The position numbers were made by a program, and so were the translations under genes. Under the pieces are notes generated by a model. The model saw nothing but the letters and a program-made list of their open reading frames with translations, did not search any database and was not told where the DNA came from. Positions 42,921 to 43,383 of a stretch of DNA of 64,000 nt are shown one piece after another; the stretch's first letter is position 1; each line of letters begins with the position of its first letter. The DNA is from Malacoraja senta (Eukaryota), in assembly GCA_038087875.1 (NCBI GenBank), contig CM075992.1, positions 10,728,001-10,792,000 of the forward strand, written 5' to 3'.

Positions 42921-43383
42921 GTAGATGATATATGCATGTGCCTTTAACATAGTGACCTCATACTTACTAACCACTCCCCATACACAAGTATAACTACAAC
43001 CTCCCCACCCACAGATCGCTCTCTAGTTCCTGTGACAGACCACGTACAGCTAGTGCAATATGTAATGCTCCAGTATGAATAAAGATAGTAAAGTAACGAT
43101 GCCTCGTTATAGCTTCTTTACATGGTGTCAGAAGTGGGATACGAACCCACGCCTCCAGTCGGAGCTCCAGTATGAATAAAGATAGTAAAGTAACGATGCC
43201 TCGTTATAGCTTCTTTACATGGTGTCACACCTCTTACCTTGCGCCTCCTGTCTATCGGTTTATCATTTAATTTTGTCCCAAGTTTTTGTTTCCCCTGCCC
43301 TCTTATTTCCTCGTTATGGCCACTTCTGCACGTAAGCCTGATGTGCTCGTTTTCGATTTAGATATTGCCCTTCGATGGGATGT
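42921..43383 (+). mobile_element. Gypsy-type LTR retrotransposon 5' end (LTR ~42921-43122, tRNA-Leu PBS, gag start)
   Basis: LTR with AATAAA ending CTTTACA, then TGGTGTCAGAAGTGGGAT. ATG at 43316 gives MATSARKPDVLVFDLDIALRW, resembling fish Gypsy gag N-termini. Confidence 0.8.
43123..43164 (-). other. 42-nt copy of a mature tRNA-Leu 3' part including CCA (not a tRNA gene)
   Basis: Minus strand reads CTCCGACTGGAGGCGTGGGTTCG(T)ATCCCACTTCTGACACCA: variable arm, T arm, acceptor strand and CCA. Confidence 0.9.

Follow-up and report, generated by a model that had tools for sequence, protein, structure and literature searches.

A Gypsy retrotransposon end in Malacoraja senta carries a read-through copy of its tRNA-Leu primer and likely belongs to an inherited record of tRNA modifications

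Results

Structure of the locus

The window, that is, the whole stretch of 64,000 nucleotides of Malacoraja senta DNA that was analysed (GenBank assembly GCA_038087875.1, contig CM075992.1, positions 10,728,001 to 10,792,000 of the forward strand), contains the 5' end of a Gypsy retrotransposon whose long terminal repeat (LTR) is followed by a DNA copy of part of a tRNA and then by a second copy of the LTR end. The features, in window coordinates, are the following.

42537..42920, no strand assigned: inverted-repeat (MITE-like) element with arms at 42537-42617 and 42770-42850; the LTR inserted into or beside it
42920..43122, + strand: 5' LTR of the Gypsy retrotransposon, 203 nt, first base changed from T to C, AATAAA near its end
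43123..43140, + strand: DNA copy of the 3' 18 nt of the primer tRNA-Leu(CAA), from the CCA end to position 59, recognised by sequence; the host gene lacks the CCA
43141, + strand: A for T opposite tRNA A58, likely a misincorporation at m1A58; the duplicate L002 has the same A
43142..43164, + strand: read-through copy of the T arm and variable-arm hairpin, identical to gene L147
43164..43219, + strand: exact repeat of the LTR's last 56 nt, probable R-U5; the -56 breakpoint occurs also in L003 and L290
43220..43227, + strand: native 8-nt primer-binding site (PBS), the same in ordinary copies L011, L012, L014, L021 and L028
43228..43385, + strand: 5' internal region with the leader and the first part of gag-pol, by homology to L127; breaks off at 43385
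43236..43248, + strand: native bipartite PBS, second block; predicted duplex with the primer's variable arm and T-stem 5' strand
43386..44260, no strand assigned: start of a satellite array of 30-nt units that replaces the remainder of the element, by sequence comparison

The window LTR is 94.6-98.5% identical to the LTRs of the other copies compared (98.5% to that of L127), and 43164-43385 shows 97.7% identity to L127. This full-length relative, used as the reference map, encodes RT, RNase H and integrase in Gypsy order within one frame (Pfam domains RVT_1 at 532-676, RT_RNaseH at 765-870, Integrase_H2C2 at 979-1030 and rve at 1057-1138), and the family may resemble Mag-type elements. Paired TG...CA LTRs, a PBS, a polypurine tract and target duplications of 5 bp are all present in the relatives; of these, the window copy shows only the 5' LTR and PBS. 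The initial annotation of this DNA had placed the LTR end at 43122, followed by an 18-nt PBS at 43123-43140; both are present in the sequence, and comparison with other copies puts the LTR start at 42920, the point at which the MITE-like homology between 42537-42920 and 31427-31805 stops.

The 42 nt that follow the LTR end at 43122 are complementary to tRNA-Leu(CAA), with T replaced by A opposite A58. They comprise the whole variable-arm hairpin and stop one base short of U44. The complementarity, which the initial annotation had followed on to 43164, corresponds to a host tRNA-Leu(CAA) gene at G000:C1:306349371 (L081/L147), whose 3' exon differs from the window copy only at nt 19 of the copy (43141), the one deviation singled out initially. 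The gene has the same variable arm and A58, an intron after G37, a T-run terminator and no CCA. The CCA is visible in the window copy, which is too short to show splicing, and at 43158, opposite the variable-loop C, the copy has the templated G and was thus read correctly. The jump back with an exact repeat that had been described was also recovered: 43067-43130 and 43164-43227 are identical over exactly 64 nt, the identity extending on neither side, and 1 nt is common to the tRNA copy and the repeated LTR end at their junction. The internal PBS had been described as matching the tRNA over only 8 nt; the 8-nt block is indeed there, but the second tRNA-pairing block at 43236-43248 had been missed, the predicted duplex of which with the primer reaches -20.8 kcal/mol (z -2.2). 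ARAGORN found no tRNA in the window.

Apart from a duplicate piece, no 3' LTR or further internal sequence of the element was found in the window, in 48 kb upstream or in 10 kb downstream, nor was the second half of the target site found within the window. The window junction was found at only two loci, the window itself and the duplicate L002 about 74 kb upstream, which has the same junction and the same A and differs from it by 1.6% over 21 kb (a 98.4% identical block). These loci lie within a segmental duplication of at least 30 kb, in which window 25606-55597 is 98.4-99.3% identical to G000:C16:10680000-10709942. Among the contigs listed for four sequencing runs, there was no variant at 43141 and none bridged the window junction; neither result is informative, since at fixed LTR positions these runs seem not to share the bases of this genome.

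The surroundings are rich in repeats. A large, degenerate satellite, built of 30-nt units and interspersed with other repeats, occupies 43393-54800; at 17212-25244, sequence is duplicated in tandem with a period of 4294 bp and an identity of up to 100%; and the MITE-like inverted-repeat family, with arms of about 80 bp, is present at 31447-31805, 42537-42920 and 2055-2415. Several long open frames of up to 463 aa are located on the + strand at 6577-14155.

Ordinary copies have a short bipartite PBS, and read-through copies are frequent

Junctions of an LTR end with the 8-nt PBS number 2301 genome-wide. The first 100 of these as listed were classified by eye into 60 with a direct 8-nt PBS, 23 with about 18 nt, 13 read-throughs and 4 others; read-through is thus common, at about one junction in eight of those listed. 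In the leaders of copies with the 8-nt PBS, unpaired sequence separates the PBS from a second block, for which pairing with the primer is predicted at the variable arm and the 5' strand of the T stem. This pairing had a z below -2 against shuffled sequences in 13 of 15 distinct leaders, beat every downstream window in 10 of the 15, and is predicted to persist across families through G-U pairs. The bipartite PBS of ordinary copies is evidently not overwritten by tRNA copying, as in Ty1 and Ty3.

An exact search for the LTR end, the 18-nt PBS, any base and five more tRNA bases returned 296 matches genome-wide, and 0 with the reversed pattern as a control. Among the matches listed in several searches, a non-random set in which long read-throughs are enriched, 167 non-identical read-through loci represented 157 distinct junctions in several LTR families, and eight clusters of junctions recurred, each at more than one locus. 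The predominance of the short bipartite PBS in ordinary copies and the presence of a junction of its own in 157 of the 167 read-through loci show that the tRNA plus U5 duplication, which the initial annotation had considered as a possible normal structure, is not the norm of the family.

The inherited tRNA-bearing products span 18-87 nt. Resumption sites were mapped for 78 of the 157 junctions (65 sense, 13 antisense) and are spread over the 4.3-kb reference copy, three of them at the leader; the window copy resumes upstream, at LTR -56, which yields a duplication and not a deletion as in most relatives. Among 82 junctions with a close counterpart, 50 were clean and 32 had 1-8 unassigned bases. 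The clean junctions had a mean microhomology of 2.7 nt versus 0.7 in controls, with an excess at 2-9 nt, and microhomology of at least 3 nt occurred in 23 of the 50 versus 6% in controls. Of the 157 junctions, 80 had no 3' LTR in the DNA examined and 13 more no locatable start; in the 64 copies with both ends located, 59 had a target duplication, 56 of them perfect. With a median LTR-pair identity of 98.5% (61 pairs), the read-through copies are young insertions made by integrase. On 43113-43172, moreover, sequencing run X1 yielded 289 contigs and run X2 yielded 111; 24 and 11 of these, respectively, have loose ends beyond 43164, as would fit more tRNA sequence leading into varied DNA.

Several individual copies deserve mention. 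In L156 (G000:C4936:178174-178260) a whole spliced, CCA-bearing tRNA-Leu(CAA) lies between an LTR-like end and integrase-like DNA (a protein resemblance judged by eye); ARAGORN calls it a tRNA gene, as which it would be mis-annotated. L058 (G000:C1:149425502-149425584) consists of two LTR-PBS ends head to head with a T-rich spacer and A at nt 19 in both. L054, L062, L037 and L005 resume at or near the second PBS block, and a near-perfect tRNA complement of 34-35 nt replaces the degenerate leader. The groups L084, L200 and L272; L079, L253 and L254; and L024 and L205 each share a resumption site although their LTR families, or their bases at nt 19 or 36, are not the same, and represent either independent jumps at microhomology hotspots or re-mobilised copies.

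Primer genes in the host genome

Searches with the tRNA 5' half yielded 12 distinct loci in the genome. Five are CAA genes with an intron, one of which lacks the T-loop, and five are CAG genes; the remaining two are a 5' half and a spliced CCA-bearing copy. Each of the nine Leu-CAA/CAG genes with a T-loop has A58, and no T58 gene is among the genes found; the variable-loop site is C in all five intron-bearing Leu-CAA genes found. Two identical tRNA-Leu(CAA) genes, L154 and L155 (G000:C7:13402203 and 13461244), have A57 in place of G57; L283 is the tRNA-Leu locus without a T-loop and L148 the 5' half. ARAGORN calls with long introns on read-through loci were discarded as spurious, and the program misnamed the intron-bearing Leu genes.

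The assembled gene set looks incomplete: copies with T at nt 38 mostly show G57, unlike the two genes that match them, L154 and L155, in which it is A57. Part of the A class at nt 36 described below could thus come from genes absent from the assembly, but such genes would hardly account for four letters at that position in both isodecoder backgrounds.

Mismatches and stops at particular tRNA positions

At nt 19, opposite A58, the templated T is present in 211 of the 296 matches (71%) and another base in 85 (29%; A 50, C 26, G 9, counted by hand), a genome-wide result in keeping with the initial proposal that the window holds a genomic record of a tRNA modification. When C or G was allowed at nt 18, 0 further matches were obtained (C and G being the bases tested). 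In 47 copies chosen on nt 25-49 only (5 of 52 events, namely 2 genes and 3 with indels or no PBS, being left out), nt 19 was mismatched in 19 (40%), compared with 20 of 987 (2%) at 21 non-CpG positions, so that the tabulation of this base called for initially reveals a clear excess (Fisher P 7e-17, computed with 22 control mismatches instead of 20). CpG positions of the same copies were mismatched in 7 and 4 of the 47. Moreover, the nt 19 mismatch was present in 8 of 24 copies whose LTR pairs are at least 99% identical.

Since A stands at nt 19 in 17% of copies, against a background of about 2% for any change, the A at 43141 of the window is far more likely an RT error than a later mutation. 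The position-specific excess of mismatches with mixed bases that characterises RT at m1A58 is present at nt 19, and arrest with misincorporation is the m1A signature given for tRNA sequencing in PMC4787781; A58 of the primer is thus likely to have been m1A58. As 71% of the copies keep the templated T, in many read-throughs the tRNA may have been unmethylated, or its m1A may have been copied without error.

A further position stands out at nt 36, opposite the variable-loop C that precedes U. In 75 CAA-type junctions its bases were A 43, G 19, C 7 and T 6, that is, 56 of 75 mismatched; the neighbouring nt 37 was T in 73 of the 75, and nt 38 splits between T and C as the genes do. In a different set, anchored to nt 24, 11 of the 47 copies that survive to this point end just before nt 36. 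In the CAG-type copies L048 and L061 the variable-loop site is likewise unlike the genes. Judged from these sequences, the signal at nt 36 probably reflects m3C (m3C47d), a modification validated in human Leu-CAG (PMC5066629).

At G37, 41 of the 47 copies chosen on nt 25-49 stop; the 6 that pass are all spliced, 4 of them have a wrong base at 37, and none enters the intron. Two copies, L069 and L183, have a mismatch opposite G26 too. We consider m1G37 a probable cause of the G37 stop. Unligated 3' exons are another possible template, because the stop coincides with the intron boundary, and the stop is less extreme than it looks, since the per-base loss upstream of it is already 0-32%. The tRNA copies were made from mature tRNA: the CCA is present, and those that extend past position 37 are spliced.

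The jump to LTR -56

The initial annotation had suggested that the jump point may mark the 5' end of the element's RNA. Breakpoints at -56 were found at three independent loci (the window, L003 and L290) and none at a control site about 25 nt upstream, which favours the suggestion; it is weakened by alternative explanations at two of the loci, a 7-nt match with one bulge for L003 and 4-nt homology to a flanking repeat for L290. With these microhomology alternatives at two of the three loci, the chances lie only slightly on the side of -56 (43067) being the transcription start, or RNA 5' end, to which the partner strand had run. A jump to -56 through the native PBS needs a minus strand that spans R-U5-PBS, as the Ty1/Ty3 model provides.

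L003 (G000:C1:353652181-353652294) contains two successive read-through tRNA copies with a 56-nt LTR end in between, and in L290 (G000:C2007:33203) the final 56 nt of the LTR stand alone, joined to another repeat via 4 common bases. Other breakpoints in the LTR end lie at -54 (L020) and -47 (L004 and L219). The latter two (G000:C6:29732008 and G000:C1497:21551) are mini-elements of 288 and 296 bp, composed of a full LTR, a tRNA copy and the last 47 nt of the LTR; they end in flanking DNA with a perfect 5-bp duplication and are likely plus strong-stop joined to minus strong-stop DNA.

Origin of the window copy and alternative explanations

These observations make it very probable that the window copy is read-through plus-strand strong-stop DNA that underwent an aberrant transfer and was integrated in the germline. 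This agrees with the read-through, aberrant second strand transfer and inheritance proposed initially, and neither a tRNA-Leu gene with T58 nor a family-wide tRNA plus U5 structure, each of which had been named as evidence to the contrary, was found. In the sequence of events that we propose, plus-strand strong-stop synthesis would continue past m1A58, where RT likely inserted A, and so generate the 42-nt copy of the tRNA-Leu(CAA) primer. By analogy with Ty1 and Ty3, a plus strand bearing a tRNA copy would normally be a dead end, the PBS not being overwritten. The mismatches at A58 and the variable-loop C and the stop at G37 would correspond to m1A58, m3C47d and m1G37. The varied resumption sites and the microhomology suggest that the over-long plus-strand tail may anneal to an unfinished or over-extended minus strand, and the joined product would then be integrated by the element's integrase, two LTRs and 5-bp target duplications having been demonstrated for the relatives. 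In the window copy, the partner minus strand had reached the RNA 5' end if the slightly favoured reading of -56 holds; its 3' part would have been lost later and the region duplicated afterwards.

A different account has the tRNA hypomodified at read-through and traces the A at 43141, like the other variants, to later mutations or to variant tRNA genes missing from the assembly. The 211 of 296 copies with the templated T would fit it, as would the small size of the gene set found, which leaves some copies unexplained. It is nevertheless quite improbable: nt 19 is mismatched in 40% of copies versus 2% at control positions and exceeds even its CpG neighbours, the mismatch occurs also where the LTRs are at least 99% identical, all nine genes with a T-loop have A58, and three different wrong bases are present at nt 19 and three at nt 36.

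Insertion of a tRNA gene fragment, tRNA-derived SINE or retropseudogene, or its recombination at the PBS, after integration could draw on the 8-nt homology between the PBS and tRNA cDNA and on the one complete spliced tRNA copy known, L156. It is already largely refuted, and we rate its probability as minimal, because all pieces, as searched, begin exactly at the LTR end with the complement of CCA, the target duplications surround the whole element (59 of 64), every tRNA piece sits where the element has a deletion or jump, and the genes have an intron and no CCA while the passing copies are spliced. Equally slight are the chances of an assembly artefact or of a structure normal for a non-autonomous subfamily. 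The eight clusters of recurring junctions and the failure of any sequencing run to bridge the window junction could be taken in that sense; against this stand the 157 distinct junctions in 167 loci, the restriction of the window junction to two duplicates that are 1.6% apart over 21 kb, and the similar contigs in two other runs. Read-through with aberrant transfer and germline integration thus remains the preferred explanation of the window copy.

Discussion

The mechanism itself, including the A58 error, is already known from HIV-1. In HIV-1 proviruses, tRNA-Lys3 inserts of 7-54 nt occur at deletion junctions, and 5 of 44 are changed at position 58 (Hardy et al. 2025; PMC12657518). The window copy resembles these products of aberrant (delayed) second-strand transfer in its order of LTR end, 18-nt PBS and tRNA copy of variable length at the jump junction, and in being integrated. 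The HIV-1 cases are somatic, rare, retroviral and primed by tRNA-Lys3, whereas those described here are inherited, belong to Gypsy elements, number at least 296 copies, and combine 29% mismatch at position 58 with signals at the variable-loop C and G37; in contrast to the HIV-1 deletions, the window copy resumes upstream of the PBS and carries a duplication. The initial annotation was unaware of this proviral precedent with its A58 error, of the frequency of the event in this genome and of the further, probably modified positions that are visible.

In Ty1 and Ty3, the PBS is not inherited from the tRNA, transfer proceeds via R-U5 at the minus-strand 3' end, and the tRNA-containing plus-strand product made in yeast is a dead end after 12 nt (PMC5371799). 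The elements studied here share the short bipartite PBS that is not inherited from the tRNA; unlike in Ty1 and Ty3, tRNA-bearing products of 18-87 nt were integrated, and the second block lies right behind the PBS and not in U3 as in Ty3 (PMC5371799). In lentiviruses and spumaviruses a primer over-extension sequence has been described, with RT stops at m1A58, 55, 54 and 37 (PMC13191261), and products extended past position 54 are stated to be non-integrable (PMC8599865). Genome-primer complementarity past the PBS and stops at bases that are modified, or here probably so, including 37, are common to both situations (PMC13191261, PMC8599865); the block in the present family, however, corresponds to about positions 47-55, is set apart from the 8-nt PBS and is predicted to go on pairing across families by means of G-U pairs.

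Human tRNA-Leu shows RT mutations at m1A58, m1G37, m2,2G26 and, for CAG, m3C47d, with stops at m1G37 (PMC5066629). The signals in the copies are like these RT signatures of tRNA sequencing, namely arrest and misincorporation at m1A, m3C, m1G and m2,2G, but were made in vivo by an endogenous RT and are fixed in genomic DNA (PMC4787781, PMC5066629); in PMC5066629, m3C47d is reported for Leu-CAG and Ser, not for Leu-CAA. Helenus TRIMs (Kojima 2024; PMC10886601) likewise have tRNA-derived sequence inside an LTR element. There, it is a tRNA-like sequence in both LTRs, family-wide, unrelated to the primer and proposed to be a Pol III promoter; here, the primer complement lies behind the 5' LTR, outside it, and differs from copy to copy. 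A tRNA-Gly insertion described in PMC12220202 arose by a different mechanism. The literature searched, which did not extend to subscription journals or repeat-database notes, contained no account of endogenous elements with read-through copies that are inherited, nor of several modifications being read from such copies; within that scope, the inherited genome-scale record is apparently new.

The window locus alone would be a curiosity with an HIV precedent; the genome-wide record is directly testable. On comparison of the copies with the tRNA genes, this DNA likely holds an inherited record of tRNA modifications. We incline, by a narrow balance, to the broader view that germline Gypsy insertions form a datable tRNA-sequencing library, from which an assembly by itself would disclose m1A58, m3C in the variable loop of tRNA-Leu(CAA), m1G37 and possibly m2,2G26 of the primer at the time of insertion, that read-through into the variable arm is a regular side route in these families, and that the bipartite PBS is a decayed, selected remnant of inherited tRNA copies which transfer at its second block can reset, as in L054.

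For annotation, these copies are a warning that PBS length, apparent tRNA isodecoders and some calls of LTR-adjacent tRNA genes can be products of reverse transcription. Here the plus-strand product that bears tRNA sequence is integrated often and gives rise to internally deleted copies, although in Ty1/Ty3 it is called a dead end and in HIV-1 it is largely non-productive. Taken together, hundreds of inherited events, independent of one another, provide in vivo error and stop spectra of an endogenous RT at probably modified tRNA bases, and tRNA modifications would become inferable, and datable by LTR divergence, in species without RNA data.
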